From contig CAZNGN010000008.1 of assembly GCA_964572865.1 (NCBI GenBank), forward strand, positions 31,561 to 95,560: a stretch of 64,000 bases of DNA, written 5' to 3'. Source of the DNA: an uncultured Bacteriovoracaceae bacterium (GTDB lineage: Bacteria; Bdellovibrionota; UBA1018; UBA923). Below the pieces are notes generated by a model, which was given only the letters and a program-made list of their open reading frames with translations, was not told where the DNA came from and did no database searches. Of this stretch, positions 1-45,007 are shown piece by piece. Every line of letters starts with the position of its first letter. The stretch's first letter is position 1. The position numbers were made by a program, and so were the translations under genes.

Positions 1-1196
1 CCATCTGTGCCGAATGAAGTTTGAAGGATGCTATATCCAACTGGATTGGGAGCATTTGCTATTACAGTGAGACCTCCGCCAACGACAGATCCAGATACAA
101 GGGCATATTTAGCAAGGTCTGATAAGTTTGGAACAAGTGACCCTAAATATGTAAGTGCTGCATTGTCGACTACGGCAGTGAGACCAATTGAGCCAAGATA
201 TAATAAATTCGCATTTAATTTTGTGATGATTGGTTCAAGCCACCAATTTTGAAATCCACCTAAGATGACTAATCCAGCTAAAAAGAGAGATACAAGCAAA
301 CTTTCTTTCATTCGAAGAGTATTTTGATATTTTTTAGTAGCTTGAGCAATTGCTAAGAAAACTAAGGCTGCGCCAATTACAATATTTGAATAATGAGCAA
401 AAAATACAATTACTGATAAAAGTACCAAATGAATAAAAATTACTAACTTTGGTGTTGTTACTTTAATAATGCTTTTAGATACACTAAGTGATGAAAGTTC
501 TTTTTTGAATAAATAAGCAAGAATTGTTGAAGAGATGATTGAAGAAAATAAACCTTTCCAGCCGAAGTTTAAAAACATAAATTTTAAATTCCAATCAAAT
601 GTTTTTGCGACCATTAAAACGGGTGGTGCAGCGTAAGGCGTAAGTGTTCCGCCAATTGAAATGTTTACAAAAAGTGTTCCTAAAATTGCATATTTTAACT
701 TTGTTGATATTTTATTTTTGAAATAGTTTTCAAATAAAATATACGCTGTAACTGTCATCGCAGCTGGTTCAGTAATAAAGCTACCTAGGGATGTTCCGAA
801 AGTTAATGTAACGATTAATACAGATATTGAATAGGGAATCGGTAATAGTCTTGCAATGAATGCGATGATTGTATCAGCAATATCTAATACCGGTTTTGAT
901 GAACAAATTAAAAGTACAGCAAAAATAAAAATTGGTTCTGAGTAGTTTTTAGAATTTAAGTAATTTACAGCCTCATTTGGGCTTATAACGAACGAAATGT
1001 ATAATAATAATACTGCAGACCATAATGCGAAAACGAGTTCTACTTCAGATAATAAAGTAAACAGTACTTTAAAAGTGGAGCCTTGCTTGAAATTTCGACT
1101 CAATTTATGCAATTGCCCCACTAAAAAAGTATGTATAATGGCTAGGCAAAAAACAAATGTTGCAGCAACCTGTACTGTTTTTAAGTTTGTGTTCAT
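1..1196 (-). CDS. Polytopic membrane permease, possibly a Na+/H+ antiporter-like ion transporter; partial, with the C-terminus beyond the window start
   Basis: ATG at 1196-1194 (minus) preceded by AGGAA. The by-eye translation (MNTNLKTVQVAATFVFCLAIIHTF...) stays open to position 1 and is very hydrophobic with many predicted transmembrane helices. The ORF track omits it because it has no stop inside the window, and lists no other minus-strand ORF over 1-1217. The family assignment is a guess. Confidence 0.55.
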   Translation of the reverse strand, partial: MNTNLKTVQVAATFVFCLAIIHTFLVGQLHKLSRNFKQGSTFKVLFTLLSEVELVFALWSAVLLLYISFVISPNEAVNYLNSKNYSEPIFIFAVLLICSSKPVLDIADTIIAFIARLLPIPYSISVLIVTLTFGTSLGSFITEPAAMTVTAYILFENYFKNKISTKLKYAILGTLFVNISIGGTLTPYAAPPVLMVAKTFDWNLKFMFLNFGWKGLFSSIISSTILAYLFKKELSSLSVSKSIIKVTTPKLVIFIHLVLLSVIVFFAHYSNIVIGAALVFLAIAQATKKYQNTLRMKESLLVSLFLAGLVILGGFQNWWLEPIITKLNANLLYLGSIGLTAVVDNAALTYLGSLVPNLSDLAKYALVSGSVVGGGLTVIANAPNPVGYSILQTSFGTD

Positions 1197-1217
1197 TCCT
1201 ACAAACTTTAACAGTAA

Positions 1218-2357
1218 TTACTGATTCATGCAAAATGCATTTGAACTAAATATAAGACCGTTGCCAGTGATTTGTATTTCATTCCATGCAATCAAAGAAC
1301 CATCCCATTTTGCAAGACCAGTAATGTGAGCTTCAGAGCGAGTAGCTAAAATGGTTCCAATTACTGAACCTTGTCCTGAGATATGAATATTGCTATGACA
1401 TCCATATAAGCTAAACAAAATGTGTTTTGCATCAACTTGAGTTGAGCTTTTAATAGATGCATTGCCACTCAATGAAAACTCACCTTTTACTATAAAGATG
1501 AATACATCTTGAGATGTACCATTTAATGTGAGTGTTTCGTTGCCAGTTAATTGAATTCCATTATTAACTTCAATTACATTTAATCCGCCATTTCCAGTAA
1601 TGACAGTATTACTGTTGATTCGGTTAAAACTTTGTGTGGCATTTAAACTTTGAATGTAGTCAGAATAGTTTTCAATCGAAATTTTTTCAGAGTGAAAGTC
1701 TTTTTGAACTACAGCATGAATGTAAGCATTTCCAGTTTTACGAACTCGGTCAGTGCAACCTATAAACAAAGTTGAATCGATCGATGCATTACCTGTTAAT
1801 GTTGCAGTCGAGTTTTCAAACATATAAACGTTTCCATTTACTTCTGCATTTCCTGTCATAGCTAATTCAGTATTGCCTAATCCAATTACGGCAGCATTTT
1901 GGTTTAGACAAAAATGTTCGTTACTTGGATTTACTACAACCGAAGTAGGCGAACTCGATGGAGTTGGTGTTGGAGTAGGCGATACAGCTACGGTTGGTGT
2001 TGGGGTTGGAGTAGGTGTTGGATCTACGTACACCGAAGTTTCAGTAGGTGAAGGTGTTGGCGTAGGATCAACATAAACGGTAGATTCTGTTGGTGAAGGT
2101 GTTGGTGTTGGGTCAATTCCTGTTGGTGGATCTACAAAAACGGTAGTTTCAATCGGAGTTGGAGTTGGTTCGGGTGTTAATTCAGGTGTTGGGTTGATTG
2201 GATCAACATCAGTTAAATCATTTCCATTTGTACCCGCAGAATTAATGGCATCTTGATCTGAAGTTTTGCTAAAATTACTGTCTGTTGATTCACAGGCAGT
2301 TAAAAAAAGCATTGATAATATAGAAGCGTTAAACGAGCTTAAACGTAAGGTAATCAT
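1218..2357 (-). CDS. Lipoprotein with a Pro/Thr-rich tandem-repeat linker and a C-terminal beta-helix domain of the DUF3494 ice-binding-like family
   Basis: Signal peptide ending in lipobox LTAC. About 110 aa of PTPTPSPTE(S/T)xVYVD-type repeats. The C-terminal half matches the DUF3494 pattern by eye ([28 protein letters not shown]...[25 protein letters not shown]...). Confidence 0.6.
1900..2215 (-). repeat. In-frame tandem repeat, unit about 45 nt (15 aa), encoding the Pro/Thr linker of the DUF3494 lipoprotein
   Basis: Near-identical units are visible on the plus strand, for example ggtgaaggtgttggcgtaggatcaacataaacgg and ggtgaaggtgttggtgttgggtc. The antisense reading gives the GVGVGV pseudo-ORF at 1873-2076. 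Confidence 0.6.
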
Positions 2358-2547
2358 AAAAGTACCCTCCTTAATAAATCACATTCTCTTTTACATGGGA
2401 TTCTCTCTTTCATTGGTTGATATTGAATATTAAAAGATCTTAACTATTATTCTACGCTTTTTAGCGCAAAGCGCAATAGAAAATTATTAAATAATAACAG
2501 ATACTTATAAAAAACGGTTAAGAATATATAATTATAGTTGAGTTTAA

Positions 2548-3426
2548 TTATTTTAAAGAACTTAAAAACATCCAGATTGCATCAATCTCAGTTTGGTTTA
2601 ATTGTTTTAGTAAATTTACAGGCATCGGAGCTCTTAATGGTTGCCCGGAATAAATTGAAACTCCAGATTGAATCATTTTTTGAAAGTTTTCTTTTGTCCA
2701 ACGTGAGTCTGCCCCCAAACGAATATTAGCAGCAGGCGGCCAAGAAGGATCTCCTCCCGGAATTGGGCCCCCTTTATATTCAGAGCCATGGCACCCAATG
2801 CAGGCGTTTGCTAAATATTTACCAAATTCAATTGTCGCGGCTTCGGTAGGTTTTGTTCCAAACCCTTTTGAATGATCAATGAAATGCGCAGGAAACACTA
2901 CTGGCATTTTATCTAATGCACTTAGAATTTTTAACATCGGACCATATGTATTCTGATGACTTTCTTGTGCAATTTCAGGAGTACTACGTAAAAAAGCAAT
3001 CAATGCAGATAGATCATCTGTACTCATGCCTTCAAAATCAAAAGAAGGCATAAATCGCAATGAACGCCCTGATTGATGTACTCCATAACGAACTGCTCGT
3101 ACAATATCTTCATCACTAAGGTGTTTTGTACGAAAGGGAGTAATGTTTACGCCATATAAACTGCCCATAGCACCGTTTTCCATTATTTTTACGCCAGTCA
3201 AATTTTGACCATGGCATTCAACGCAACCATTGCGAACATAATAAATGCGTTTACCAAGTTCTATATTTGGATTTTGTTTCCAATTGATTTTAGATAGTTC
3301 TTCATGCATTGGAAATTTTTCTTCTAGTTTAGAATTAAACTTACTAAATTGAATTCCAATAAAAATACTTGCTACTACGACTAGAGTTGCTAATAAAAAT
3401 CCAATATATTTGAAAAATTTCTTCAT
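2548..3426 (-). CDS. Membrane-anchored diheme c-type cytochrome
   Basis: N-terminal transmembrane helix. Two CxxCH haem-binding motifs (CVECH and CIGCH). Confidence 0.75.
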   Translation of the reverse strand: MKKFFKYIGFLLATLVVVASIFIGIQFSKFNSKLEEKFPMHEELSKINWKQNPNIELGKRIYYVRNGCVECHGQNLTGVKIMENGAMGSLYGVNITPFRTKHLSDEDIVRAVRYGVHQSGRSLRFMPSFDFEGMSTDDLSALIAFLRSTPEIAQESHQNTYGPMLKILSALDKMPVVFPAHFIDHSKGFGTKPTEAATIEFGKYLANACIGCHGSEYKGGPIPGGDPSWPPAANIRLGADSRWTKENFQKMIQSGVSIYSGQPLRAPMPVNLLKQLNQTEIDAIWMFLSSLK

Positions 3427-3504
3427 CTGATTTGGCCCTTTCGAATGAAGTGAGTAGGTAAAAAAGTTCTACTAGATTAGATAAAAAAAACCGATACGTA
3501 AGTA

Positions 3505-4785
3505 ATGAAATACTTTATTTTTATTTTAATATTTATTTCTCATTCTGTTTTTGCTCAATGCAAAAAGCAAACGACTAAAATTGAAAAATTAGAAAGTTTT
3601 GCAAATTTAAATTTAAATTATGGATGTCTAGGAGCCTATGTTGCAAATGAATTAAAAGAATATCATCCCGATCGAAATATTAATGGTGAAAAATTAGCAG
3701 AAAATGTAGCAGCGTGGGCACAAGAAAATACTAAAAAAGAGAATTGGTTTACAGATATTAGAGATTCTTTTAAATCAAGAATGAAAGCGGGTGCAACTCT
3801 TCTGCCGCGTTTATGGAATGGTTCACTTATTTCATATGATCAAGATCAAAATGATATTCAAAAATTAAGAAAATGGCTTTTGAGCACAAAAGATTTATCT
3901 GTAACCCCTGATCAGCTGATTAAACATGCATTAGCAATTTCTGAAGGAAACATCGAGCGTGCGATTACAATGTGTTATAATCACTTTTTAGTTGAAGGTG
4001 CTGTGGGTGTAAACGCAATTGAACGTGACACTCGTTGGTATGTAATGAAAATGACTGACATCACTGGAGAGAGAGAAGTTTTTGATGATATTGGCCACAA
4101 AGTGAATGGGCAGTATAAAAAATTCGGAAGAGGAGATTTGTATTCAGCATATTATCATTTTTTTGCAACCGCATTGCATTCGTATATTCGTGAAGAAAGT
4201 TCTGTCAGCTTAAGATTGCCAACATCAACTTATTCTTGGCTTGAGGAGTCTCAGTGGAATAAATCGATGGAGGATAAATTAAAACGTAAACAAATTGATG
4301 AAGAAGGAGCTGAGTTTGGAAAAAACTTAGCTGAACTATTAAAAAAAGATGAGAAAGTAAAAGTAAATGGAAAATACATAGAAGACAGACCCGATCTTTA
4401 TGGTGAAAAGTGGGCTTTGAAAGAAGGACAACATCCAAGAGATTTTAATACAGACAATAAAACTTATAATTATCCTACTGCTTTAGAAGAAGTCACAATT
4501 CTTAAGAAACTAATGCAAAATGAAAAATACTATAAAAAATATTTTAATTGTTACGCAGATCATTTAAGAGGTAGCGATAATCAGTACATCATTTTATCTG
4601 TCGTAGAAACTTTGTCACAAGATCGTGATTTGAAAACTGGAAAAATTAAAAAAGATTCCTATGATCTTTTAAAGAAAATGAGTCAAAAGGGCTACAGTGT
4701 TGTGAAGAAGATGGCCCAATGTGTTCTAACTGAAAAAACATTAGAAGAGTGTGAAAAAGCAAATCGCCCAACCAATCTTGAATAA
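3505..4785 (+). CDS. Secreted hypothetical protein, 426 aa
   Basis: Clear signal peptide (MKYFIFILIFISHSVFA) and a long ORF. Divergent from the cytochrome gene. No family recognised. Confidence 0.5.
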   Translation: MKYFIFILIFISHSVFAQCKKQTTKIEKLESFANLNLNYGCLGAYVANELKEYHPDRNINGEKLAENVAAWAQENTKKENWFTDIRDSFKSRMKAGATLLPRLWNGSLISYDQDQNDIQKLRKWLLSTKDLSVTPDQLIKHALAISEGNIERAITMCYNHFLVEGAVGVNAIERDTRWYVMKMTDITGEREVFDDIGHKVNGQYKKFGRGDLYSAYYHFFATALHSYIREESSVSLRLPTSTYSWLEESQWNKSMEDKLKRKQIDEEGAEFGKNLAELLKKDEKVKVNGKYIEDRPDLYGEKWALKEGQHPRDFNTDNKTYNYPTALEEVTILKKLMQNEKYYKKYFNCYADHLRGSDNQYIILSVVETLSQDRDLKTGKIKKDSYDLLKKMSQKGYSVVKKMAQCVLTEKTLEECEKANRPTNLE

Positions 4786-4870: not shown

Positions 4871-5857
4871 ATGTTTTTAAAAGATTCTTTTCAAAGAAAA
4901 TTTTCATATTTAAGACTTTCAGTTACAGAAAAATGTAATTTTAAATGTGAGTATTGTTTGCCGAATGGGTTTCAAGAATTTGCCTCAAACTATGATGAAA
5001 ATGAATTAACAATCAATGAAATAAAAAATTTAGTTACAGCATTTGCAAGTCTTGGTGTCACGAAAGTTCGACTCACTGGAGGAGAGCCAACCGTGAGACG
5101 AGATATTGTTGAAATTGTAGATGTTGTTTCGAGAATTAATGGAATTGAAGATATTGCATTAACGACAAATGGATTTAAATTGCCACAGTTAGCGCTATCT
5201 CTTCGCACTGCTGGATTGAATAAGTTAAATATTAGTTTAGATAGTTTAAATAAAAACAAATTTAATAAAATCGTCGGTGGCGACAAATTTGAATCTGTTA
5301 TGATGGGAATTGAGACTGCACTCAGTTTAAAATTTAATAGCATAAAATTAAATGCAGTTTTAACTGCAGAAACAACTGAAGATGAAGTTCAGTTGTTTTT
5401 AAATTATATTAAAAATAAACCGATTAGTGTGCGTTTCATCGAATTAATGAAAACAGAAAAAAATTCAGAATTTTTTAAAAAAAATCACATCAACGCTGGC
5501 GCTTTAAAATTATTTCTTCAAAAAAATGACTGGAAAATAATGAATAAAAAATCAACAGATGGACCTGCAATCGTTTATAGACATAATGACTACGAAGGTT
5601 CGATTGGAATTATTGCTCCATATACAGAAGGTTTTTGTGAAGACTGTAATCGTTTGAGGGTAACTTCAGTGGGCGGTTTAAGGCTTTGCTTATTTGGAGA
5701 AAATGACTATCAATTGCGAGATTTATTACAAAATGAAAATCACAGTAATGATTTAATAAATCGCATTCAATCTGCAGTACTAGAAAAACCAGAAAGTCAT
5801 TTTTTAAAATATGGAATTGTAGGAAAAAATACACATTTTGCTCAAATTGGAGGCTAA
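4871..5857 (+). CDS. moaA: GTP 3',8-cyclase MoaA, a radical-SAM enzyme
   Basis: N-terminal YLRLSVTEKCNFKCEYC radical-SAM CxxxCxxC cluster. The size and C-terminal Cys motif are typical of MoaA. Confidence 0.85.
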   Translation: MFLKDSFQRKFSYLRLSVTEKCNFKCEYCLPNGFQEFASNYDENELTINEIKNLVTAFASLGVTKVRLTGGEPTVRRDIVEIVDVVSRINGIEDIALTTNGFKLPQLALSLRTAGLNKLNISLDSLNKNKFNKIVGGDKFESVMMGIETALSLKFNSIKLNAVLTAETTEDEVQLFLNYIKNKPISVRFIELMKTEKNSEFFKKNHINAGALKLFLQKNDWKIMNKKSTDGPAIVYRHNDYEGSIGIIAPYTEGFCEDCNRLRVTSVGGLRLCLFGENDYQLRDLLQNENHSNDLINRIQSAVLEKPESHFLKYGIVGKNTHFAQIGG

Positions 5858-5858
5858 C

Positions 5859-6860
5859 GTGAATCAAGAAAATGCAAATTATAAAATGATAGATATCGAT
5901 CACAAAGTGGATACGCACCGAAAAGCAGTAGCATCTGGTTATTTTTATGCCTCACACGAAACAATTAAAAAAATAATAAATAAAGAAATCCCAAAAGGCG
6001 ATGTACTTTCTTTGGCTGAAATTGCAGGCATACAAGGTGCTAAACTAACATCTCAAGTTTTGCCACTTTGTCATCCTTTGCAATTAACATCAGTCAGAGT
6101 ATGGACAGAATGTTTGGCTGATACCATCCAAGTATTTTGTGAAGCAAAAACGATATCAAAAACGGGTGTTGAGATGGAAGCATTATGTGGAGTGAACGCA
6201 GCACTACTTTGTATTTATGATTTAGTTAAAAGTGTTGATCCAGTTTTAGAAATAAAAAATATTAAGTTACATTCAAAGGAAGGCGGAAAAACCGGACATT
6301 GGATGAATCCAACAATCGAACAAAAGTCGATTGAACAGCCATCCGAGAAAAGTGCTTCTAGTGAGTTTACAAACTTACATTTTTCAGTAATCACAATGAG
6401 CGATCGAGCATATCAAGAAAAATATGAAGATCATTCTGGAGCAGAAATCGTAAGTTGGGTTCAAAAAAATAACGGAAAACTCATTCAAAAAATAATTCTT
6501 CCCGACGAAAAAGATAAGTTAATGTCTGAAATTAAAAAGTTAATTGCAGAAAAAAGTACAAATTGCATTTTAATTTCTGGGGGCACTGGTTTATCAAAAC
6601 GAGACATTACGCCTGAAGCAGTTTCTCAATTAGTAAAAGAATGTGGTGGAAAAGAAATTTGCGGTATTGGTGAATTGTTAAGAAATGAAGGAATTGCAAA
6701 AACAAAATTTGCAGTGCTCAGTCGTTCTTCGGGATATTTAATTGAAAATACTTTAATCATTACTTTGCCTGGAAGTGTAAAGGCAGTGTTAGAAAGTTTA
6801 CCTGTGATTCATGATTTAATTCCTCATATGATTCATACTGCTCGAGGTGGTTCACATTGA
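5859..6860 (+). CDS. moaC: Fusion of cyclic pyranopterin monophosphate synthase MoaC with a MogA/MoaB-type molybdopterin adenylyltransferase domain
   Basis: The N-terminal about 150 aa is MoaC-like (LTSQVLPLCHPL...EALCGVNAALLCIYD). The C-terminal about 170 aa is MogA/MoaB-like (ILISGGTGLSKRDITPEA). A GTG at 5859 lies 5 nt after GGAGG (5849-5853), so the likely start is GTG 5859 rather than the ORF-track ATG at 5838. Confidence 0.75.
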   Translation: MNQENANYKMIDIDHKVDTHRKAVASGYFYASHETIKKIINKEIPKGDVLSLAEIAGIQGAKLTSQVLPLCHPLQLTSVRVWTECLADTIQVFCEAKTISKTGVEMEALCGVNAALLCIYDLVKSVDPVLEIKNIKLHSKEGGKTGHWMNPTIEQKSIEQPSEKSASSEFTNLHFSVITMSDRAYQEKYEDHSGAEIVSWVQKNNGKLIQKIILPDEKDKLMSEIKKLIAEKSTNCILISGGTGLSKRDITPEAVSQLVKECGGKEICGIGELLRNEGIAKTKFAVLSRSSGYLIENTLIITLPGSVKAVLESLPVIHDLIPHMIHTARGGSH

Positions 6861-7939
6861 GATTTAAAATTAATAATTTAAACAATTTCTTTGGAGCATT
6901 TGCAGATATTGCGATTATGCTGCCGATTATATCGCTTTTATCTGTTCACTCAGGGTTTTCAGCCCCCACATTATTTTTAACAAGTGGTATGCTATATGTT
7001 TTCAGTTCATTGTACTATAGAGTTCCCATTTCAATTCAGCCATTAAAATCAATAGCGATTTCTTCGTTAACGTTAGGAGCAAGTTTTTATGATGTGCGAA
7101 TGGCGGGTTTTTTATTGGGATTTATTTTTGTATCTCTTTGGATTCTGAAAATTGATAAATATTTAAATAAAATTCCAGATTCGATTGTACATCAAATTCA
7201 AGTGGGGTTAGGTACACTTTTATTAATTCAAGCATACCGAAGCGATTCTAATGCGATTATATATTTAATCAGCGCAGTCGTTGCTTTTGTACCATTCTTA
7301 TCAAAAATTCCTGTGTTAGGAATTGTAGCAGTCATCGGATTATTATTTGGATTATTTTATCCAAGTTCAAGTAAAGAATTATCAATCAATTCAAATTTAC
7401 ATTGGAACATAATTATATCTCTTTTATTGCCTCAGATTATATTAACTCTTTCAAATTCAGTTGTAGCAACACAAAGAGTATGCAAAACGTATTTTAAAAG
7501 CGAAGCTAAAAATGTAAAAATGAATCGACTCATCTTTAGTATTGGATTTGGAAATATAATTTCATCAATGTTAGCTGGGTTACCGTTTTGTCATGGTTCA
7601 GGTGGGGTAACTGCTCATGCCAAAGGAGGGTCACGTAACTTTATATCAACTATAGTGACTGGTGCATTTTATATAATTTTCGGCATTATATTGTTTAATT
7701 TTAAAAATTTAACTTTTCAGTTACATCCAGTATTTATTTCATTTTTACTTGCAACGACTGGCTTTTATCATATGCAATTAGCAAAAAATACAATTTTACA
7801 AAAATTAGGAATTTTTAAAGTCATTACTTCAATTTTGATTACTGTAATTTCTTTAAATTTAATTTATGTTTTATTGTTTTCTATAATTTTAGAAATATTA
7901 GAAAATAAATATCTAAAATTGAAACGAGCATTCGTATGA
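6857..7939 (+). CDS. MOT1-family high-affinity molybdate transporter (sulfate-permease-like MFS_MOT1)
   Basis: Polytopic membrane protein carrying both MOT1 signature motifs: PISIQPLKSIAISS (consensus PxPVQPMKxIxAxA) at 7025-7066 and GLPFCHGSGGVTAHAKGGSRNF (consensus FGxMPxCHGxGGLAxQ..FGxRxG) at 7577-7642. TTG start at 6857 lies 6 nt after GAGGTGG and overlaps the upstream stop. An alternative internal ATG is at 6917. Confidence 0.7.
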   Translation: MRFKINNLNNFFGAFADIAIMLPIISLLSVHSGFSAPTLFLTSGMLYVFSSLYYRVPISIQPLKSIAISSLTLGASFYDVRMAGFLLGFIFVSLWILKIDKYLNKIPDSIVHQIQVGLGTLLLIQAYRSDSNAIIYLISAVVAFVPFLSKIPVLGIVAVIGLLFGLFYPSSSKELSINSNLHWNIIISLLLPQIILTLSNSVVATQRVCKTYFKSEAKNVKMNRLIFSIGFGNIISSMLAGLPFCHGSGGVTAHAKGGSRNFISTIVTGAFYIIFGIILFNFKNLTFQLHPVFISFLLATTGFYHMQLAKNTILQKLGIFKVITSILITVISLNLIYVLLFSIILEILENKYLKLKRAFV

Positions 7940-9207
7940 TTCGATATTCTGAAGCTTTGAATTGTATTTCTGAAATCGCATTAGAGTTAAGAGATCAAAA
8001 AGAGTTATATGAAGTTGTATCAATAAAGAATGCAACCGGTAGAGTTTCATTTAATGATGTATTTTCAACTGAAAACATTCCAAATGTTGATAATTCAGCG
8101 ATGGATGGATTTGCATTACGATCAGTAGATATACAAACTGCTTCAATTGAACATCCCATTGAGTTAAAAGTGGTAGGATCAATTGCTGCAGGAGATTTGA
8201 ATGCATGGAAAGAACATAATGATTTAACAGAAAATACATCCGTTGAAATTATGACTGGGGCACCTATCCCTTTAAATGGTGCAGACTGCGTAGTAAAAAT
8301 AGAAGATGTTAAATGTATTCATAACCAACAAGGCAAAATCATTTCGATTGTCATAAGTAAACCACTACATAAGTATGAAAATATACGACGCTTTGGTTCG
8401 GATCTGTCAATTGGAGATAAACTTCTTTCAAAAAATACGAAAATATCTTCAGAAAATATAATGGTTTTATCAAGTGTGGGGATTTCAGAAATTAAAGTTT
8501 ATAAAAAACTAAAAGTTGGAATTCTATCAACTGGATCTGAAATTGTAGATGCAGGAATTAAAAAAATAGAAAAAGCACAAGTTCGTAATTCTACGACAGC
8601 ATATATTCAGTCTATATGTGAAAAAATGATGTGTGATGTAGTTGTGTCGGAGCATGTTACTGACGATCCTGTACAATTTAGAAGTAAATTCGAAAAAATG
8701 TCATCAAATAGAATAGATGTTATTTTTACGACCGGTGCTGTATCGATGGGTAAGTATGATTTTATTCCAAATGTTTTAAGAGAATTAAATTCAGAAATTT
8801 ATTTTCATAAAGTTGCCATTAGGCCTGGTAAACCAATTATTTTCGCTAAAACAAATGATAATATAGTAGTCTTTGGTTTGCCCGGAAATCCAGTTTCAAG
8901 TGCAATTGGTCTTCGATTTTTCTTTGAACCTTATTTGAGAAGTTATTTTCAGTTAGAAAAAGAAAGTATCTTTAAAGCAAAATTATTAAAACCTACAAAT
9001 AAAATGTTAGGCCTAAGAACCTTTTTAAAAGCAAATATTAAAAATGACTGCAGTCAAATTTATATTGAACCACAAGACGGACAGTCATCTCATATTGCAA
9101 AATCATTACAGAATTCAAATGCATGGATCATTGCCGATGAAGAATTGCAAGATTTACAGACAAATCAAATAGTGAACTTTGTGCCAATTGATTCAGAGCT
9201 AATGTGA
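7936..9207 (+). CDS. moeA: Molybdopterin molybdenumtransferase MoeA
   Basis: NSAMDGFALR and GLPGNPVS motifs. About 420 aa. ATGA overlap with the upstream gene. Confidence 0.85.
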   Translation: MIRYSEALNCISEIALELRDQKELYEVVSIKNATGRVSFNDVFSTENIPNVDNSAMDGFALRSVDIQTASIEHPIELKVVGSIAAGDLNAWKEHNDLTENTSVEIMTGAPIPLNGADCVVKIEDVKCIHNQQGKIISIVISKPLHKYENIRRFGSDLSIGDKLLSKNTKISSENIMVLSSVGISEIKVYKKLKVGILSTGSEIVDAGIKKIEKAQVRNSTTAYIQSICEKMMCDVVVSEHVTDDPVQFRSKFEKMSSNRIDVIFTTGAVSMGKYDFIPNVLRELNSEIYFHKVAIRPGKPIIFAKTNDNIVVFGLPGNPVSSAIGLRFFFEPYLRSYFQLEKESIFKAKLLKPTNKMLGLRTFLKANIKNDCSQIYIEPQDGQSSHIAKSLQNSNAWIIADEELQDLQTNQIVNFVPIDSELM

Positions 9208-12312: not shown

Positions 12313-12504
12313 TTATTGTGTAGTCCAAGAGTCTTGGCAGATGGTTGGATCGTTTGCTTCTTCAATATCTAGGTCTGAAGGATCGCCAGTGAGTGAAGCT
12401 TGAGTGCCCGTTTCAGCAGTTTTGTCAGTTACTTTTGAAGTGCATGATCCGATTGAAAGTGAAAGCGCTAGTAAAATGATAACGATACTGAAATATTTTG
12501 ACAC
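12313..12504 (-). CDS. Small lipoprotein, 63 aa
   Basis: GTG start 5 nt after AGGGGG. Signal peptide with lipobox IGSC. Acidic mature part. Confidence 0.45.
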   Translation of the reverse strand: MSKYFSIVIILLALSLSIGSCTSKVTDKTAETGTQASLTGDPSDLDIEEANDPTICQDSWTTQ

Positions 12505-12726
12505 AAAAACCCCCTGATATTGTCAATTATATCAGTTTATCGGCAAAATGTTCATAGACTTTAGTTATTTTTTAAGTATATGAAATTATTGATATATTAT
12601 TGACAGTTTGTGCTCTTCACTGTTTTGTATCATTAGAAAACAGCATGAAATTCAAGAAAAGTTGCATAATATCCGATAATTATAGTAAGATATTATATAT
12701 CTATATATATTGTACGTTGGTGGGGA

Positions 12727-15675
12727 ATGAAAATAAGGGTTCTATTATTTATTTTAGTTTTAGTCTCAGTTATCGGATTATCGTTCGATGCAATTGCAAC
12801 TCCATACTACGAGTTTGATACAACAAATTTTTATCCTGGCGATATTGGTGAAGATTCACAACCGACGATTAGTATAAGTGGTTGCCCATCTTATGGTGTC
12901 ACATTTGGAATCTATGATGATTCAAGTTGCACTAATTTAGCATTTGTTCCTAGTGCTCCGATTATGTGTATTGCACCACCAGATCCGTTCTTAGTTACAA
13001 CTACGAAAACATTAACAACAACCGGAATTTATAATTATTATATAAAATTTAATGGAGCTTGCGATATAAATTCAACTCATTACTTAAATAATTCTGCACC
13101 ACTTAAATATTATTATTTAAATCCGACTATGGAATTAGATCCGGTACAAACTCCAAACTATACTGATACTACTCCCACAATTTTAATTCATTCGGCGCTT
13201 CCTAATTCAATCTTAGAATTATTTAAAGATTCAAGCTGTAGCCAAAGCGTAAGCTCAACTGCTAATGCAAGCTCTACTGGTGAAGCTTCTATTACAACAA
13301 ATCATATTTTAACTGCATTGAATTTTTACTTAAAAGTGAAACGAAATTTAACTGATGATGGATATTGCATTCAAAATCATGTTTTATTTTATCCATTAAA
13401 TTCAGCTCTTGTTACAATGTCTAGAATTAATCCAACAGGTAGTAGATCAAATACAGTATTAAATCCTAAATTTAGAATTTCTAACATAAACACAATGGCA
13501 GGTCAGGTCATTAAATTAAAAGCTAAAAATACTAGTACAAATATTATTTCAACATCAGCAAATCATACAATTACTTCTATAGAGGCAAATGATGGATATG
13601 TTGATATCACATTTTCGCCTTCGCTAACTTGTTCGGCTTCCGTTTGTATTTTTAGTATTTATCCTAACATAAATGCTAACGATCATTACTATGTAGCTCT
13701 TGATTATATTTATGATATTGCAACGCCTTCGATTAATTCATTAACGTATACGATCAATGGTCAATTGAATTCACAATATAATACAAACAATGGAAATGTG
13801 ACAATATCTCTAAATCAAATTTGGCAAGATGATGTTTATACATTTTATTTTTATGCTAACAATAATTGTTCAGGCACCGAGAGTTCAATCGCAATATCAA
13901 ACTTTCAATCTAGTATCACAACGAATATTGATTTAGCTTTTGATGGAACTTATCAATTTTCTTATAAAGCAAAAGATTCAGCTGGTAACAATTCTTCACC
14001 AACATGTAGAATATTTACTAATCCAATCATTGCTGGATCAAACATAAACATGACAATAGATCGAGTCAGTCCTAATATCAGTAATATTAATATACAAAAA
14101 TCTGTAAACGGAGTTCTTCAAAATGCAAATGGACTTTGGTCTGATACAGTTAGTATTACTGCTAATTCAACTGATAATTCATATATTTTAAGTACTGCAA
14201 CAAAACTTAATATGAATAGAACTTATAATAATGTGGTATATAATGCGCAATTTAATTTAAATTGTACAAATAATGCACAAAATACAAGTTCAAATTGTTC
14301 ACTATCTCTTGATACGTTAAATAATTCTCAGTTTTTAGATCAATTTAAGTATATTCCAAATCAATCATCTACGCCTATATTATTAAGCTCAAATGCTGGT
14401 GTAAATTCTAACGGAAGTTATAACTTTACATTGAGTACGCTTGATAATTTTGGCAATTCTTACACATCTGCATCCTATTCAGCAGTTATATCAAATGATT
14501 TTGTCTCTCCAGTTATCAGTTTTAACAGTCCGCCAGAAAATGCAACTTTAAATGGAAATCCAACTTGTATTTTGGCAACAGGAACAGCGTTCCCTGTACA
14601 GCTGCAGCTTTCAGATGATACAGGTGGAAACAAAACTATGTTCGTATTTATGAATGAAAATCAAGCATCATTGCCAAGTGCATTTTCAAATGCAAATTGT
14701 CCTATAAGTGGAAGTACTACATTGCAGGGTATATCTACTATAAATATATTTCAAAGCGGAAATGTAAGTAATGGATTGTTTTCAACAAGTTTGAATACGA
14801 TTAGTAAAGCAAATAATATTTATTACTTGCGAGCTGTCGCCTGCGATTCTGCCGGACATATGAGTGTAGCACATGATTCATGTTTGAAAATTGCAAATGC
14901 AGTGAATGATACTGCAATTCCAACTGGATTAGCATTTAATAGTACACCAACAACTGCAAGTGGAAATAATTTTATTTTAACTGCAAAAGTTTTTGATGAT
15001 GTTCAAATCGCAAAAGTAGAGTTGTATAAGAATGGAGCACTTTATATGGTTAGTAGTGTTCCGCAAGATTTTACTCCGAATGCAGGTGATCCATGGAAAT
15101 ATGATTTTAAAATTAATACGCTAACGTTACCAAATGGCAGTGCTACATTTGCATTGAGAGCGTGTGATACTTCGAATAATTGCACATCCTTGACTGCTTC
15201 GATCATAGTAACGATACAAAATGCTGATCTAATTTTGCAGGCAGAAAACTATACGCCCATTGCAGGTTTGGTGTTTCCAATTGCTACATCTGCAGCAACA
15301 GGAAGTCCGATTGTGATTTCATTTCCTGTAGGTACTTCAAAATTTAATTGGATCACATATACTGTACAGCCACGATTTGCAGCAAATAATGATTATTATG
15401 TTTACGTACGATTGAGAGCAAAAGATTCAAATTTACCAACAGGATTAAAAATAAGTTTAGACAACGGTTTAACCTTTACGAATATGTCATATCGAAAAAA
15501 TAATACGTTTAAATGGTGTCGTTATCAGGTGAACGCTACTACTGCTCGAAAATTTAAATTTGATCCAGCTAATCCTAAGTCAGTTCAATTTAAATTTAAT
15601 AATTCAAATCTTGAAGTAGATAAAATATCGATTCTTCCTGCCGATGCCACTTCAATCAACCTACAAAATCAGTAA
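12727..15675 (+). CDS. Large secreted Asn/Ser/Thr-rich surface protein, 982 aa, a probable adhesin with Ig-like beta domains
   Basis: Signal peptide MKIRVLLFILVLVSVIGLSFDAIA. 982 aa uninterrupted. Highly N/S/T-rich with many NxS/T sites. No enzymatic motif recognised. Confidence 0.6.
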   Translation: MKIRVLLFILVLVSVIGLSFDAIATPYYEFDTTNFYPGDIGEDSQPTISISGCPSYGVTFGIYDDSSCTNLAFVPSAPIMCIAPPDPFLVTTTKTLTTTGIYNYYIKFNGACDINSTHYLNNSAPLKYYYLNPTMELDPVQTPNYTDTTPTILIHSALPNSILELFKDSSCSQSVSSTANASSTGEASITTNHILTALNFYLKVKRNLTDDGYCIQNHVLFYPLNSALVTMSRINPTGSRSNTVLNPKFRISNINTMAGQVIKLKAKNTSTNIISTSANHTITSIEANDGYVDITFSPSLTCSASVCIFSIYPNINANDHYYVALDYIYDIATPSINSLTYTINGQLNSQYNTNNGNVTISLNQIWQDDVYTFYFYANNNCSGTESSIAISNFQSSITTNIDLAFDGTYQFSYKAKDSAGNNSSPTCRIFTNPIIAGSNINMTIDRVSPNISNINIQKSVNGVLQNANGLWSDTVSITANSTDNSYILSTATKLNMNRTYNNVVYNAQFNLNCTNNAQNTSSNCSLSLDTLNNSQFLDQFKYIPNQSSTPILLSSNAGVNSNGSYNFTLSTLDNFGNSYTSASYSAVISNDFVSPVISFNSPPENATLNGNPTCILATGTAFPVQLQLSDDTGGNKTMFVFMNENQASLPSAFSNANCPISGSTTLQGISTINIFQSGNVSNGLFSTSLNTISKANNIYYLRAVACDSAGHMSVAHDSCLKIANAVNDTAIPTGLAFNSTPTTASGNNFILTAKVFDDVQIAKVELYKNGALYMVSSVPQDFTPNAGDPWKYDFKINTLTLPNGSATFALRACDTSNNCTSLTASIIVTIQNADLILQAENYTPIAGLVFPIATSAATGSPIVISFPVGTSKFNWITYTVQPRFAANNDYYVYVRLRAKDSNLPTGLKISLDNGLTFTNMSYRKNNTFKWCRYQVNATTARKFKFDPANPKSVQFKFNNSNLEVDKISILPADATSINLQNQ

Positions 15676-15779
15676 AATTACTCCTTAACGCAGCGCGCTT
15701 AAGACATATATGCCTAGATAATTATTGATAAATTATACAAAAAATTGAAGACTAAGTTATCCTAACAGAAGGGGGAAAT

Positions 15780-16010
15780 ATGAAGACAATCATGTCATCA
15801 ATCTTATGTTTAATGTTCGTTGGAGCATCAGCGTTTGCTTGTCCTTGCAAAGAAGGAAAAGAAGCAAAAGCCACTGAAAAAGGCGCTAAAGTAGCTTGTG
15901 CATGTAAAGAAGGCAAAGAATGTAAAAGCTGCAAAGAGTGCAATGGCAAAAACTGCGAGCATCATAAGCATAAAGATGCTGAACCTAAAAAAGAAGAAGC
16001 ACATACATAA
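15780..16010 (+). CDS. Small secreted Cys/His/Lys-rich protein, metallothionein-like and probably metal-binding
   Basis: AAGGGGG RBS. Signal peptide (…GASAFA). The 56-aa mature part has 8 Cys in CPC, CAC, CKSCKEC and NC motifs with the internal repeat C(P/A)CKEGKE, and a C-terminal HHKHK. Confidence 0.6.
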   Translation: MKTIMSSILCLMFVGASAFACPCKEGKEAKATEKGAKVACACKEGKECKSCKECNGKNCEHHKHKDAEPKKEEAHT

Positions 16011-16124
16011 GTATTTGTAACCACTAGGTTAATGGCTATTTCAAGGACGATTGACACGGAGTATTAATTCGTGATAGCTACTTAGTTGTCGTCGTCTCGT
16101 CAGTACATGAGAAGGGGAATGTGT

Positions 16125-17798
16125 ATGATGAGAGTTAAAAGTCTAATAATTATTTCTATTATTATTTTATCTTCTTTGGTTTTTACCGCATGTAAAAATC
16201 CATTTAGTAAGGAAGATTCTAGTTCGCAAAACTCTACAAATACTCCTGCACCAACTTTCACTGGAGTTGTAATTGGCATTGATCCTACGACCGATTTAAC
16301 GTTAGCTCCACAATTAATTAAAGATACAGTTCTTTGGGACTCTTCTGGAAAAGTAGTAACTGGCACAATGGAAGATCGTGGAACTTGGGATTTAACTTCT
16401 GCATTTTTAGGTGAAGGACACTATTCAGGTGTTTCAAATTTACCAAACTCAAATCAAGTTTGCACTGGTAATACGATTTTAGGTGTTACAGGAGCAGCTG
16501 TTTGCCAAAGTGGAACAGCAACCACGCTTGCTTCTACTTCTCAAATTTTATCGGGATTTCAAGCTTGGGATTCTACAGGCACGTTGATGACGGGAACAAT
16601 GACTTCTCAAGGAAGTTTAAATGCTTCTCTTAGTTTTCCGGGAGCTGGATATTATTCAGGCACTGTAACTAACTTACCGACAACTTCACAAGTTTGTAGT
16701 TCAGTGAATGTATTAGGAGTTACAGGAGCAGCTGTTTGTCAAAGCGGCTCGACTACTTCTCCTGCCGGTGTTGGAAATATTTTAAATGGCTTAGAAGCTT
16801 GGAGTGCGACAGGCAATAAGATTACAGGCACTATGCCAAATCGTGGTTCATTAGATGCGACTCAGAGTTTTCCGGGAAATGGGTATTACTCTGGAATTGT
16901 AACCAATTCTCCAACTGCAGCTACCATTTGTAGTGGAAATACAGTTTTAGGTATAGCAGGAACTGCAATTTGTGGAGCACCTGCAACTCCATATTCATCA
17001 AATGCAAATCGCGATAAAAACACTACTCAAATTACACAGCTTCAAGAAACTGTGACGTATGCTGGTACTAGTTTGCCAAATAATTATCGCGAAATGCCAT
17101 TTGTATCTAAAGATGATGATGGTTCATTTTCATCAAATGCTACTAAAGTTGTGCGAACAACTTTTGTGAATTGTGGATTAACACAAACTACGATTACAGC
17201 TCGAATCAGCGACTGCGCAACCTTAAATGGTGTCAATGCAACGTGGGATGGACAGGTCAAAGGAAATAATGGTTTTGGTGTATGGAAGCTTGTTACAAGA
17301 ACCGCAGCAAATATCGAAGTATGGCGTGATGAACGCACAGGTTTATTGTGGTCATCAAAAGTTGCAACATCAAAAAATTGGTGTAAAGCTTCTGGAAATA
17401 ATAATAGTTCAGTTGTAACAAACACAAATTTTAAAGAAAATGATCCCAATGGTACTTGTACGAATTCATCGAATCAAAATACAACCACAGCACCAATTTC
17501 ATATTGTTTAGAAAATGCACAATTTGATACTTCAAATGTAAATGCTGCAGGCAAAGCTGGATTAAAAGCAAGTTCAACACCAACTGTTCGTTGGAGGCTA
17601 CCTACTTTGAATGATTATTTGCAAGCACAAGTGGATGGTATTAATTTAGTGCTTCCTGATTTTAGTACTTCGTATGAATGGACGGCAACGATTAACTCAG
17701 CAAATACATCGCAAGCATGGATGTATAGACCTGCATCAACAATCATTGCAACCAATCCTAGATCAAATAATCGCGATGTTCGTTGTGTGGGAAGATAA
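16125..17798 (+). CDS. Lipoprotein with three tandem Cys-capped repeats of about 70 aa and a C-terminal DUF1566 (Lcl C-terminal, lectin-like) domain
   Basis: GAAGGGGAA RBS then ATG at 16125, chosen over the upstream in-frame ATG at 16086. Lipobox VFTAC. The repeats end in QVCxxNxxLGVTGAAVC. The C-terminal domain has VWRDERTGLLWS...VRWRLPTLNDYLQA...YEW, typical of DUF1566. Confidence 0.65.
   Translation: MMRVKSLIIISIIILSSLVFTACKNPFSKEDSSSQNSTNTPAPTFTGVVIGIDPTTDLTLAPQLIKDTVLWDSSGKVVTGTMEDRGTWDLTSAFLGEGHYSGVSNLPNSNQVCTGNTILGVTGAAVCQSGTATTLASTSQILSGFQAWDSTGTLMTGTMTSQGSLNASLSFPGAGYYSGTVTNLPTTSQVCSSVNVLGVTGAAVCQSGSTTSPAGVGNILNGLEAWSATGNKITGTMPNRGSLDATQSFPGNGYYSGIVTNSPTAATICSGNTVLGIAGTAICGAPATPYSSNANRDKNTTQITQLQETVTYAGTSLPNNYREMPFVSKDDDGSFSSNATKVVRTTFVNCGLTQTTITARISDCATLNGVNATWDGQVKGNNGFGVWKLVTRTAANIEVWRDERTGLLWSSKVATSKNWCKASGNNNSSVVTNTNFKENDPNGTCTNSSNQNTTTAPISYCLENAQFDTSNVNAAGKAGLKASSTPTVRWRLPTLNDYLQAQVDGINLVLPDFSTSYEWTATINSANTSQAWMYRPASTIIATNPRSNNRDVRCVGR
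16311..16973 (+). repeat. Three tandem in-frame repeats of about 70 aa (210-225 nt) in the DUF1566 lipoprotein
   Basis: Each unit reads (ILxGxxAW(D/S)xxGxxxTGTMxxRGSxxxxxSFPGxGYYSGxVTNxPTxxxxCxxxxxLGxxGxAxC). The three units align with each other. Confidence 0.6.
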
Positions 17799-43531: not shown

Positions 43532-45007
43532 TTACCAGATCGGTTGTGAAATACCAAAACTAAATTTAGATAAATCAATATCACCTTTTGGCTCACTATA
43601 TTGAATACGAGTTACTTCAAAAACAAAGGCAAAAGGATTGTCAGTGATCATAAAAAGTTGAAATCCTAATCCAGCAGTAATCTCATGATTTCGAGAAGAG
43701 TTGAATTGCATGCCTGTACTTAAAGCAGAATATCTGCCGTATGTCCAAACCCCACGATGTCCGGGAGGCGTTTTACTTAATAACAAACCTAGTTGCGGCC
43801 CTTGCCATGTTCTAATTCCATAAATTCCTTGAGGAGTAGGTGGATTTACAAACATTCCCAGAAGTGTAACACCAGGTTGGATAATAAATTTGATATCAAG
43901 AAATTCAAATGGCAGTTGATATCCGAATTTCGGGTTAAGTCCATAATATGAAAACGGATTTATTTCAGTATTATATTTTGTAAATATTCTTGGAAAATAA
44001 TTAAAAGTATATAAATCAGAAAATGTTGAAATGTATAAAGAATATTTATTGGGAGTAAAAATATATTTATAATCAAGTTGTCCCGCAAGACTCTTTTTAA
44101 TCATTGTTAATTCTAATGAATTTTCATTATATTTATAAATTGAAAAATTAAAACCTAAGTTAAGTGTTGAGCGCTTTTCACGAGGGGGAGGATTGATCAA
44201 TAAATCGTAATTATGAATCGTTCCTTTAATATCATAAGCACCAATGTTTGTAATGACTTCTTGAGATTCATAATCCTCTAGCGACTTGGATAGCGGATAA
44301 ACAATAAATTCATTATTATTTAAGTGATCTAATTTTCCAACTTGAGAAGACTCGTTCCATTTTGCATCATGAGATTTAAAAAATAGAAGTTGATTCAAGT
44401 TCTTAAGTGAACAATTGATTCCAATATAAAAATATTCTGATTTTAAAATCGAAGATACGGTTGATTTTGGTGAGATATAATCTTTAGTACAATCTTCATC
44501 AATAATCAGTAAAGATTGATCGGCTAATATTTCAAGTTTGATCTTATAGTCTACTAGTTTATTAGTTTTCGTATCTTTAAATTGAACCGTTGCTTCTGTA
44601 ATTCTTGATTCTATTGAAAAATCAATTGTATTTTGATTTTCATCATAATTAATTAATTTTGAACCAGAGATTGAAGTGATCGAATCAAATTTATGATTTT
44701 TAGGAAAATTACTTAATGATACTTTAATACGAAAAGAGGGAATTTCTGTTCGAGTACCGTCAGCCAGAGCAGCGTTTTTTAGTCCCCAACCATATTCATC
44801 AGAAATTACACTGAATCGTCTGCCACTTATATCTGACCATTGGCCTGTATAAGATACATTTATATTTTGTAATAATTTACTGCCAACATAATATGCCTTA
44901 TTTGCTGCAAAGCAGTTCAATGAAAAGAATAGAGATAAGAGTATGACTTGAAATTGAATAAACTGGCGTCGTTTCATTAGATTTATCTTATCAAATAAGT
45001 GCTTCAT
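43532..45007 (-). CDS. Probable outer-membrane protein, 491 aa, ending in an aromatic residue
   Basis: Signal peptide (…LFFSLNCFA). The C-terminal …FGISQPIW is typical of a beta-barrel terminal motif. The function is unknown and may be polysaccharide export or assembly. Confidence 0.45.
   Translation of the reverse strand: MKHLFDKINLMKRRQFIQFQVILLSLFFSLNCFAANKAYYVGSKLLQNINVSYTGQWSDISGRRFSVISDEYGWGLKNAALADGTRTEIPSFRIKVSLSNFPKNHKFDSITSISGSKLINYDENQNTIDFSIESRITEATVQFKDTKTNKLVDYKIKLEILADQSLLIIDEDCTKDYISPKSTVSSILKSEYFYIGINCSLKNLNQLLFFKSHDAKWNESSQVGKLDHLNNNEFIVYPLSKSLEDYESQEVITNIGAYDIKGTIHNYDLLINPPPREKRSTLNLGFNFSIYKYNENSLELTMIKKSLAGQLDYKYIFTPNKYSLYISTFSDLYTFNYFPRIFTKYNTEINPFSYYGLNPKFGYQLPFEFLDIKFIIQPGVTLLGMFVNPPTPQGIYGIRTWQGPQLGLLLSKTPPGHRGVWTYGRYSALSTGMQFNSSRNHEITAGLGFQLFMITDNPFAFVFEVTRIQYSEPKGDIDLSKFSFGISQPIW

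Follow-up and report, generated by a model that had tools for sequence, protein, structure and literature searches.

Between a transporter gene and a group of glycan genes in an uncultured Bacteriovoracaceae bacterium lie four consecutive genes for apparently exported products, which raises the question of what these products are built from and whether they act together in recognising or adhering to other cells. The genes occupy positions 12313–17798 of a 64,000-nucleotide (nt) stretch of contig CAZNGN010000008.1 (assembly GCA_964572865.1), referred to below as the window, and encode, in order, a 63-amino-acid (aa) lipoprotein, a 982-aa protein, a 76-aa peptide and a 556-aa lipoprotein. A preliminary interpretation made from the letters alone (the sequence-only reading) had proposed a surface-protein island specifying a cell-surface recognition or adhesion module. 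Part of this proposal is retained here: the products carry export signals, and the two large ones appear to be composed only of binding-type modules used elsewhere for adhesion, namely immunoglobulin (Ig)-like spacers, a galactose-binding-like sandwich and a C-type-lectin-like head. The functional four-gene module is not retained. We put at roughly 55% the probability that both large proteins are adhesin- or lectin-like envelope binding proteins; outward-facing contact with prey or substrate specifically is rated below that. The features of the two large genes, in window coordinates, are the following:

12727–15675, plus strand: open reading frame (ORF) of the 982-aa Sec-secreted multi-domain protein, with predicted signal peptide aa 1–23 and cleavage site ..AIA↓T
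12844–14016, plus strand: approximately four Ig-like repeats of the Big_13 type (aa 40–430), recognised by phmmer domain-level matches, with a conserved Cys pair in the pattern DxTPxxxVSG...LYxDSxC...FYxKxxDxAGNxSxC
14317–15231, plus strand: Ig-like domains of the Big_7 type (aa 531–835, comprising 531–620, 681–740 and 743–835)
15232–15672, plus strand: conserved C-terminal beta-sandwich (aa 836–982), akin to Cry-toxin domain III and galactose-binding-like domains
16128–17798, plus strand: gene for the 556-aa lipoprotein, lipobox ..VFTA↓C; the ORF of 570 aa reaches upstream to 16086
16299–16973, plus strand: three 78-aa beta-rich repeats with C-x13-C hairpins C112–C126, C190–C204 and C268–C282 (556-aa numbering)
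17145–17795, plus strand: C-type-lectin-like head, an extended Lcl_C/DUF1566 domain with an insertion of ~40 aa rich in Asn, Ser and Thr (N/S/T) and with six Cys

All four ORFs of the sequence-only reading were recovered at the coordinates it gave, and its description of four consecutive secreted products agrees with the Sec-type signal found at the start of each. Two of them have clear lipoboxes (..LSIGS↓C in the 63-aa product, ..SSLVFTA↓C in the 556-aa product); lipidation is predicted for both. In the 982-aa protein the signal ends at an A-x-A cleavage site (..AIA↓T), and that of the 76-aa peptide ends in ..ASAFA↓C, compatible with a signal-peptidase I site and also with a permissive lipobox. 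Each of the four genes has its own ribosome-binding site. The flanks are likewise as described, with a POT/PTR2 transporter upstream and a DAO-family oxidoreductase, a DegT aminotransferase, a Bac_transf sugar transferase and a GT4 glycosyltransferase downstream. The 982-aa protein had been called N/S/T-rich, and its N+S+T content is indeed 33.8%, next to 33.9% in the 556-aa lipoprotein and a window median of 17.9%; these two are the highest values among the window products. A 379-aa ORF elsewhere in the window (1218–2357, minus strand; N/S/T 33%, lipobox ..LFLTA↓C) may represent a third window product with this kind of composition.

Translation of the large lipoprotein most likely starts at ATG 16128, because a GAAGGGGA ribosome-binding site is present at 16111–16118 and the NCBI model (P0001) is also 556 aa long. 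Three Cys-capped repeats were found as the sequence-only reading had reported, with the ends CTGNTILGVTGAAVC, CSSVNVLGVTGAAVC and CSGNTVLGIAGTAIC, but their period is exactly 78 aa and not the ~70 aa first estimated. The repeat has no model in Pfam, NCBIfam or PHROG (matches to Pfam remain sub-threshold, with Phycodna_minor_capsid at 17 bits), and a fold search with the lipoprotein model gave no match for this part. At the DNA level, the self-match of 16334–16739 against 16565–16973 has 61% identity and Tandem Repeats Finder (TRF) does not call the repeats, which argues that they are old and not slippage-prone. A phage tail-fibre origin, considered on account of a likeness between the repeat motif (ILSGxxAWxxxGxxITGTMPNRG) and repeats of phage tail fibres, was rejected after no tblastn match appeared in 50,697 phage records and no match in PHROG.

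The C-terminal domain of the lipoprotein had been assigned to DUF1566 (Lcl type), and this assignment is right in substance: by family matches and by fold it is a divergent, extended C-type-lectin-like domain, although its own Pfam score lies below threshold. We accept the assignment because 33 of the 47 aligned family members match Lcl_C (PF07603) at E < 0.01, the best at 1.1e-8, and because the fold resembles that of the C-terminal domain (CTD) of Legionella Lcl; the lipoprotein itself matches Lcl_C with E-values of 6e-5 to 2.6e-4. A monomer model built with AlphaFold (AF2) from the 47-sequence alignment reached a mean predicted local distance difference test score (pLDDT) of 80, with most of the head at 86–97. 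When this model was searched with Foldseek, the Legionella Lcl-CTD came first, followed by snake-venom C-type-lectin-like proteins, and the nearest solved relatives of the head were Lcl, the Bdellovibrio fibre tip Bd2740 and invasin. The modelled head thus has the C-type-lectin-like fold of the Lcl-CTD. Five of its six Cys are invariant or nearly so across the lipoprotein family.

This family proved to be sizeable and taxonomically narrow. A word-indexed search with the 556-aa lipoprotein returned 115 relatives and a scan of species-representative genomes yielded 80 loci, with nearly all labels being Bdellovibrio, Pseudobdellovibrionaceae, Bacteriovoracaceae, Oligoflexia, Silvanigrellaceae or Bdellovibrionota; several are generic (Pseudomonadota, Proteobacteria, 'bacterium'), and two labels of metagenome-assembled genomes (MAGs) appear out of place (Heliomicrobium, Cyclobacteriaceae). 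Several MAGs carry three or four family loci. From this distribution the source organism, which has a low GC content, would itself be placed in the Bdellovibrionota. At 30 loci a second head-domain match lies nearby on the same strand, and tandem gene pairs account for at least some of these cases, as in Bdellovibrio sp. qaytius, which points to expansion of the family by tandem duplication. The expansion of DUF1566 proteins in Bdellovibrio-like bacteria that the sequence-only reading had mentioned therefore holds for this family, concentrated and often tandemly duplicated as it is in Bdellovibrionota. Same-strand tandem pairs were seen in Bdellovibrio and Pseudobdellovibrio at loci L012, L018, L019 and L029 (about 5300–6140 and 7130–7960) and at ~25 others; some closely spaced double head matches may fall inside one gene.

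A lipobox pattern is present in 35 of the first 60 homologues listed. Across the 115 homologues, a strict motif count gave 0–5 repeats with a period of 77–80 aa, a lower bound since diverged repeats escape the motif. Variation in repeat number among relatives had been anticipated; when this was checked, all three of the closest orthologues, which come from three different samples, were found to have exactly three repeats, and the head was their best-conserved part.

The 982-aa protein had been described as having no recognisable enzymatic domain. Domain-library scans found none either, but the protein does have recognisable domains of other kinds: it matches Big_7 above threshold, Big_13 near threshold and, with the C-terminal domain taken alone, Endotoxin_C above threshold. 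Big_7 (PF17957) scores 24.5 bits on the whole protein and 30 bits on aa 744–807 (threshold 24.1), and Big_13 (PF19077) scores 25.3 bits on aa 334–426 (threshold 27). Approximately 130 domain-level matches were obtained with phmmer, covering aa 40–280, 330–430, 530–620 and 680–840; the matched proteins are Big_7/Big_13 repeat proteins, and the partners of aa 40–430 are strong Big_13 repeat proteins. An AF2 model was made for aa 520–982 from an alignment of 11 whole sequences (mean pLDDT 70), and in it the Ig domains at aa 679–829 are confident (pLDDT 73–95), with values of 78–95 for the Ig fold of the Big_7 match.

The last 147 residues are of a different kind. Scanned alone, aa 836–982 match Endotoxin_C (PF03944) at 24 bits (threshold 21; E 5.5e-5), a second family member does so with an E-value of 3.6e-7, and the match is limited to the C-terminal two thirds of the profile. 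Endotoxin_C, the domain III of Cry toxins, is a lectin-like beta-sandwich of the galactose-binding-like clan. In the scan of the whole low-complexity protein the match went unreported, hidden until the domain was scanned on its own, and N/S/T-rich proteins in this data set may be systematically under-annotated. A fold search with the aa 520–982 model produced a listing swamped by Ig matches, with no separate result for the C-terminal domain.

Homologues of the 982-aa protein are extremely rare. Exhaustive phmmer comparison with 1.84 billion representative proteins found a single full-length orthologue of 928 aa, 42% identical, encoded on a syntenic Logan contig (L001); a word-indexed search had returned only the query itself and missed this orthologue, an artefact of candidate selection. 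Identity between the two is far from even along their length, at 26–35% over aa 24–620, 50% over aa 621–740 and 67–69% over the last Big_7 and C-terminal domains (69% for aa 836–982), while 17 of 19 Cys are kept. Other genes common to the window genome and L001 have 49% to 97% protein identity; the whole 982-aa protein is thus at the low end of the shared genes and no wild outlier, and its N-terminal part is the most diverged stretch of the region shared with L001. Along the shared region (window 6878–28021) identities are very uneven: MoeA, MoaD, MoaE, a ThiF-like protein and a MOT1 transporter are 49–67% identical, the POT transporter adjacent to these molybdenum-cofactor genes is 91% identical, and YajQ and MiaB are 95–97% identical.

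For the C-terminal domain, the only other homologue in the 1.84-billion library is P0146, which has two copies, and a metagenome scan for the domain found no relatives. P0146 is a protein of 1107 aa with no other Pfam domain, encoded at 132–3455 of a 5.3-kb metagenome contig (L002). Its gene lies directly upstream of another (3458–4021) that matches 2_5_RNA_ligase2/Acb1, which may indicate a phage context.

Taken together, we favour a model in which the 982-aa protein would be a Sec-secreted rod of about eight disulfide-bonded Ig-like beta-sandwiches, those of Big_13 type followed by those of Big_7 type. Its conserved C-terminal lectin-like domain may hold it on a glycan, possibly the surface polysaccharide of the cell itself, and in that case the N-terminal Ig rod, which diverges quickly, would form the variable portion that is exposed. 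The 556-aa protein would be lipid-anchored through Cys22, with a spacer made of the three 78-aa beta repeats and their disulfide clasps, and would display the C-type-lectin-like Lcl_C head, the long N/S/T-rich loop of which could bind the ligand. Export signals, domain content, folds, conservation and taxonomic distribution are results of the analysis, and the outer-surface location, the glycan ligands and any role in contact with prey or substrate are what we infer from them. It seems unlikely to us that matters go as far as a more specific version of this model: there, the 982-aa protein would be a lineage-specific, fast-evolving recognition rod docked by its lectin module on a glycan of the cell's own, made by the DegT, Bac_transf and GT4 enzymes, and its variable Ig N-terminus and the lectin-headed lipoprotein would jointly serve the recognition of prey or substrate, as a second system separate from the MAT fibres of Bdellovibrio.

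Several observations weigh against the adhesin- or lectin-like reading. The Lcl_C score of the lipoprotein is sub-threshold: the whole protein reaches 21.7 bits and the isolated domain 23.7 bits (gathering threshold 34.9). The C-terminal domain of the 982-aa protein was modelled as all-beta with about nine strands at moderate confidence only (pLDDT 53–77), and its profile found nothing significant among PDB sequences. That protein has no recognisable membrane anchor or sorting tag and could simply be released. A lipobox is silent on which membrane and which face a protein occupies. Finally, a joint function of the neighbouring genes with the lipoprotein is unsupported, because outside the clade of the window the lipoprotein family does not keep these neighbours.

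The explanation that competes best, doubtful though we consider it, is that both large proteins act inside the envelope, in the periplasm or on the peptidoglycan, lipopolysaccharide or capsule of the cell itself, in a structural or housekeeping role. It would account for the presence of Sec and lipoprotein signals only, with no surface-sorting tag found by domain scans, and for the position of the genes next to envelope glycan genes (DegT, Bac_transf, GT4) and LolA; the conserved Cys pairs would suit any oxidising compartment. Nevertheless, the nearest structural relatives of the head (Lcl, Bd2740, invasin) are extracellular adhesin domains, and the divergence of the 982-aa N-terminus and the expansion of lipoprotein paralogues are more typical of exposed proteins.

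Less probable still is release of the 982-aa protein as a soluble lectin, or as a surface-layer-like or toxin-like factor acting through its Cry-domain-III-like module. The absence of a recognised anchor and the above-threshold Endotoxin_C match are consistent with it, as is P0146, the other carrier of the domain, which is large, without other Pfam domains and encoded on a short contig beside an Acb1/2',5'-RNA-ligase-like gene. However, neither Cry domain I or II nor any pore-forming or enzymatic domain is matched by the 982-aa protein, its remainder consists of Ig-like spacers typical of adhesins, and folds of the domain III type are in wide use as plain carbohydrate-binding modules (the Pfam GBD clan).

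Whether the two small genes belong to a common system with the large ones can be judged from their occurrence. They and the spacer between the divergent first two genes are located as follows:

12313–12504, minus strand: ORF of the 63-aa small lipoprotein, lipobox ..LSIGS↓C as read from the sequence
12505–12726: divergent intergenic region between the 63-aa and 982-aa genes, 222 nt, 26.6% GC
15780–16010, plus strand: ORF of the 76-aa secreted Cys/Lys/Glu-rich peptide, with a strong ribosome-binding site

The mature part of the 63-aa lipoprotein would be ~42 aa long with one further Cys; the L001 orthologue is 78% identical, and family searches gave nothing above noise. In the Lys/Glu-rich 76-aa peptide, eight mature Cys are arranged as CPC, CAC, CxxCxxC and C, with an HHxH tail. 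None of the eight Cys or of the His residues varies among three genomes (window 15780–16010; L001 9657–9890; L083 108–341), in which the peptides are 74–82% identical overall. The peptide is unmatched in Pfam, NCBIfam, PHROG and PDB, and a metagenome pattern scan found no relatives; it resembles a small exported peptide of the metal-binding or disulfide-rich kind.

On L001, the 63-aa, large, 77-aa and lipoprotein genes follow in the same order between POT and DAO. On the 3-kb contig of a third sample (L083), the genes for the 77-aa peptide and the lipoprotein are followed downstream by a convergent gene in the place of DAO, so that the full four-gene arrangement is found in two genomes only and the third keeps its downstream part. 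None of the 80 other lipoprotein-family loci contains relatives of the 63-aa, 76-aa or 982-aa products. A functional four-gene module is therefore not borne out, as the neighbours co-occur only in the small clade of the window itself. The term 'island' is not justified either: the window has no tRNA genes, no mobility genes were seen beside the region, and the gene order is syntenic in L001 and partly so in L083. GC content across the window genes ranges from 27% to 42%.

Proximity to the glycan genes allows another function for the composition of the two large proteins, as N/S/T-rich exported substrates of a protein-glycosylation pathway encoded next door. Their N+S+T content of about twice the window median and the adjoining DegT, Bac_transf and GT4 genes would fit, yet we regard this as very unlikely: none of the ten downstream ORFs scanned encodes an oligosaccharyltransferase, the glycan genes yield to housekeeping genes after ~6 kb, and many secreted beta-rich proteins have a high N/S/T content. 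No Pfam match at E ≤ 1e-5 was obtained for a 491-aa ORF further along the window (43532–45007, minus strand), which lies amid glycosyltransferase and methyltransferase genes.

The spacer upstream of the 982-aa gene had been described as extremely AT-rich, with an (AT/TA) tract that could permit slipped-strand variation of expression. Compared with segments of equal length in a sequence of 34% GC overall, its GC content falls near the 5th percentile, which is normal for intergenic DNA. Phase variation of the 982-aa gene by slipped-strand mispairing can draw on a short TA run 17 nt upstream of the start codon, but this run is (TA)4.5, 9 nt long (12702–12710), and occurs at chance frequency (two TA runs of at least 8 nt in the window, 2.6 expected under a first-order model). 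It is not called by TRF, and it is kept almost base for base in L001, reading TATAAT there, in a genome whose proteins are 42–97% identical to those of the window. This is the behaviour of a promoter −10 element, and the tract is best read as the −10 region of a promoter. Together these observations effectively refute the slippage idea. Searches of the intergenic region against Rfam gave no match, and neither promoter or terminator predictions nor folding of the locus spacers exceeded shuffled controls. Upstream of the 63-aa lipoprotein gene, 12505–12600 and L001 6540–6640 share long identical blocks, TATTGTCAATTATAT and TATCGGCAAAATGTT.ATAGACTTTAG, more conserved than the surrounding spacer, which are candidate promoter or operator sites.

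The weakest proposal, that a diversity-generating retroelement (DGR) diversifies the head, starts from DUF1566 being a frequent DGR target. It is effectively refuted for the window: nothing resembling a template for the 3' part of the gene was found in its 64 kb (best match 46 nt, 70% identity, E 0.03), and the head is the best-conserved part among three orthologues.

The main present yield of this analysis is annotation, in the form of domain architectures and a probable true start codon, with the phase-variation and island ideas removed. Databases already contain members of the lipoprotein family, labelled hypothetical or 'DUF1566 domain-containing' proteins, and multi-Ig proteins with lectin-like ends are common. 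New are the near-restriction of the family to Bdellovibrionota, its 78-aa Cys-clasped repeat without a family model, the division of the 982-aa protein into domains, with the Endotoxin_C-like module that whole-protein scanning had hidden, and the structural link of the head to the Bd2740 tip. If the proteins are surface-exposed, the recognition proteins of Bdellovibrio-like bacteria would gain a phylum-wide, lipid-anchored C-type-lectin-like family on an uncatalogued disulfide-clasped repeat, together with a rare Cry-domain-III-like module on an Ig rod, and the DUF1566/Lcl_C domain would gain a second functional context. Both would add to the MAT fibres; among the prey-recognition proteins of these predators, a literature search found no others that are at present structurally characterised.

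Several known systems come close to the two proteins. With multi-Ig surface proteins, to which its ~130 remote matches belong, the 982-aa protein has Big_7 repeats in common, one of them above threshold, and it has Big_13-like ones, the best near threshold, but its repeats are very diverged (20–35% identity), its full architecture recurs in a single orthologue among 1.84e9 representatives, and it lacks the enzymatic, Kelch, RCC1 or beta-helix partner domains of the matched proteins. With Cry delta-endotoxins it shares only the domain-III-like sandwich. Cry domains I and II are absent, with no Endotoxin_N or Endotoxin_M match, and the upstream part is Ig-like, so that it is not a three-domain Cry toxin; the family of its C-terminal domain is so far tiny, consisting of two orthologues and one unrelated two-copy protein.

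The lipoprotein head differs from DGR-diversified lectin targets (Treponema TvpA, Bordetella phage Mtd) and from leptospiral DUF1566 proteins in that the window has no template repeat and the orthologues have a conserved head, not a hypervariable one. Its fold is common with the Lcl-CTD of Legionella pneumophila (PDB 8Q4E; PF07603), which binds host glycosaminoglycans (PMC11162425), at an identity of only 17–18%. The Lcl-CTD has no disulfides (PMC11162425), whereas the heads of the lipoprotein family have six Cys and the ~40-aa insertion. Lcl also has a collagen-like stalk and an N-terminal coiled coil; the lipoprotein has neither, with no collagen-like GXY repeats in its sequence, and instead combines a predicted lipid anchor with three 78-aa Cys-clasped repeats. 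With Bd2740 (PDB 8OKS), one tip domain of the prey-recognition fibres of B. bacteriovorus (PMC10769870), the head shares the tip fold only, with no detectable sequence similarity. The MAT proteins are trimeric fibres of ~1,000 aa (PMC10769870), whereas the lipoprotein described here has 556 aa, a lipobox and beta repeats.

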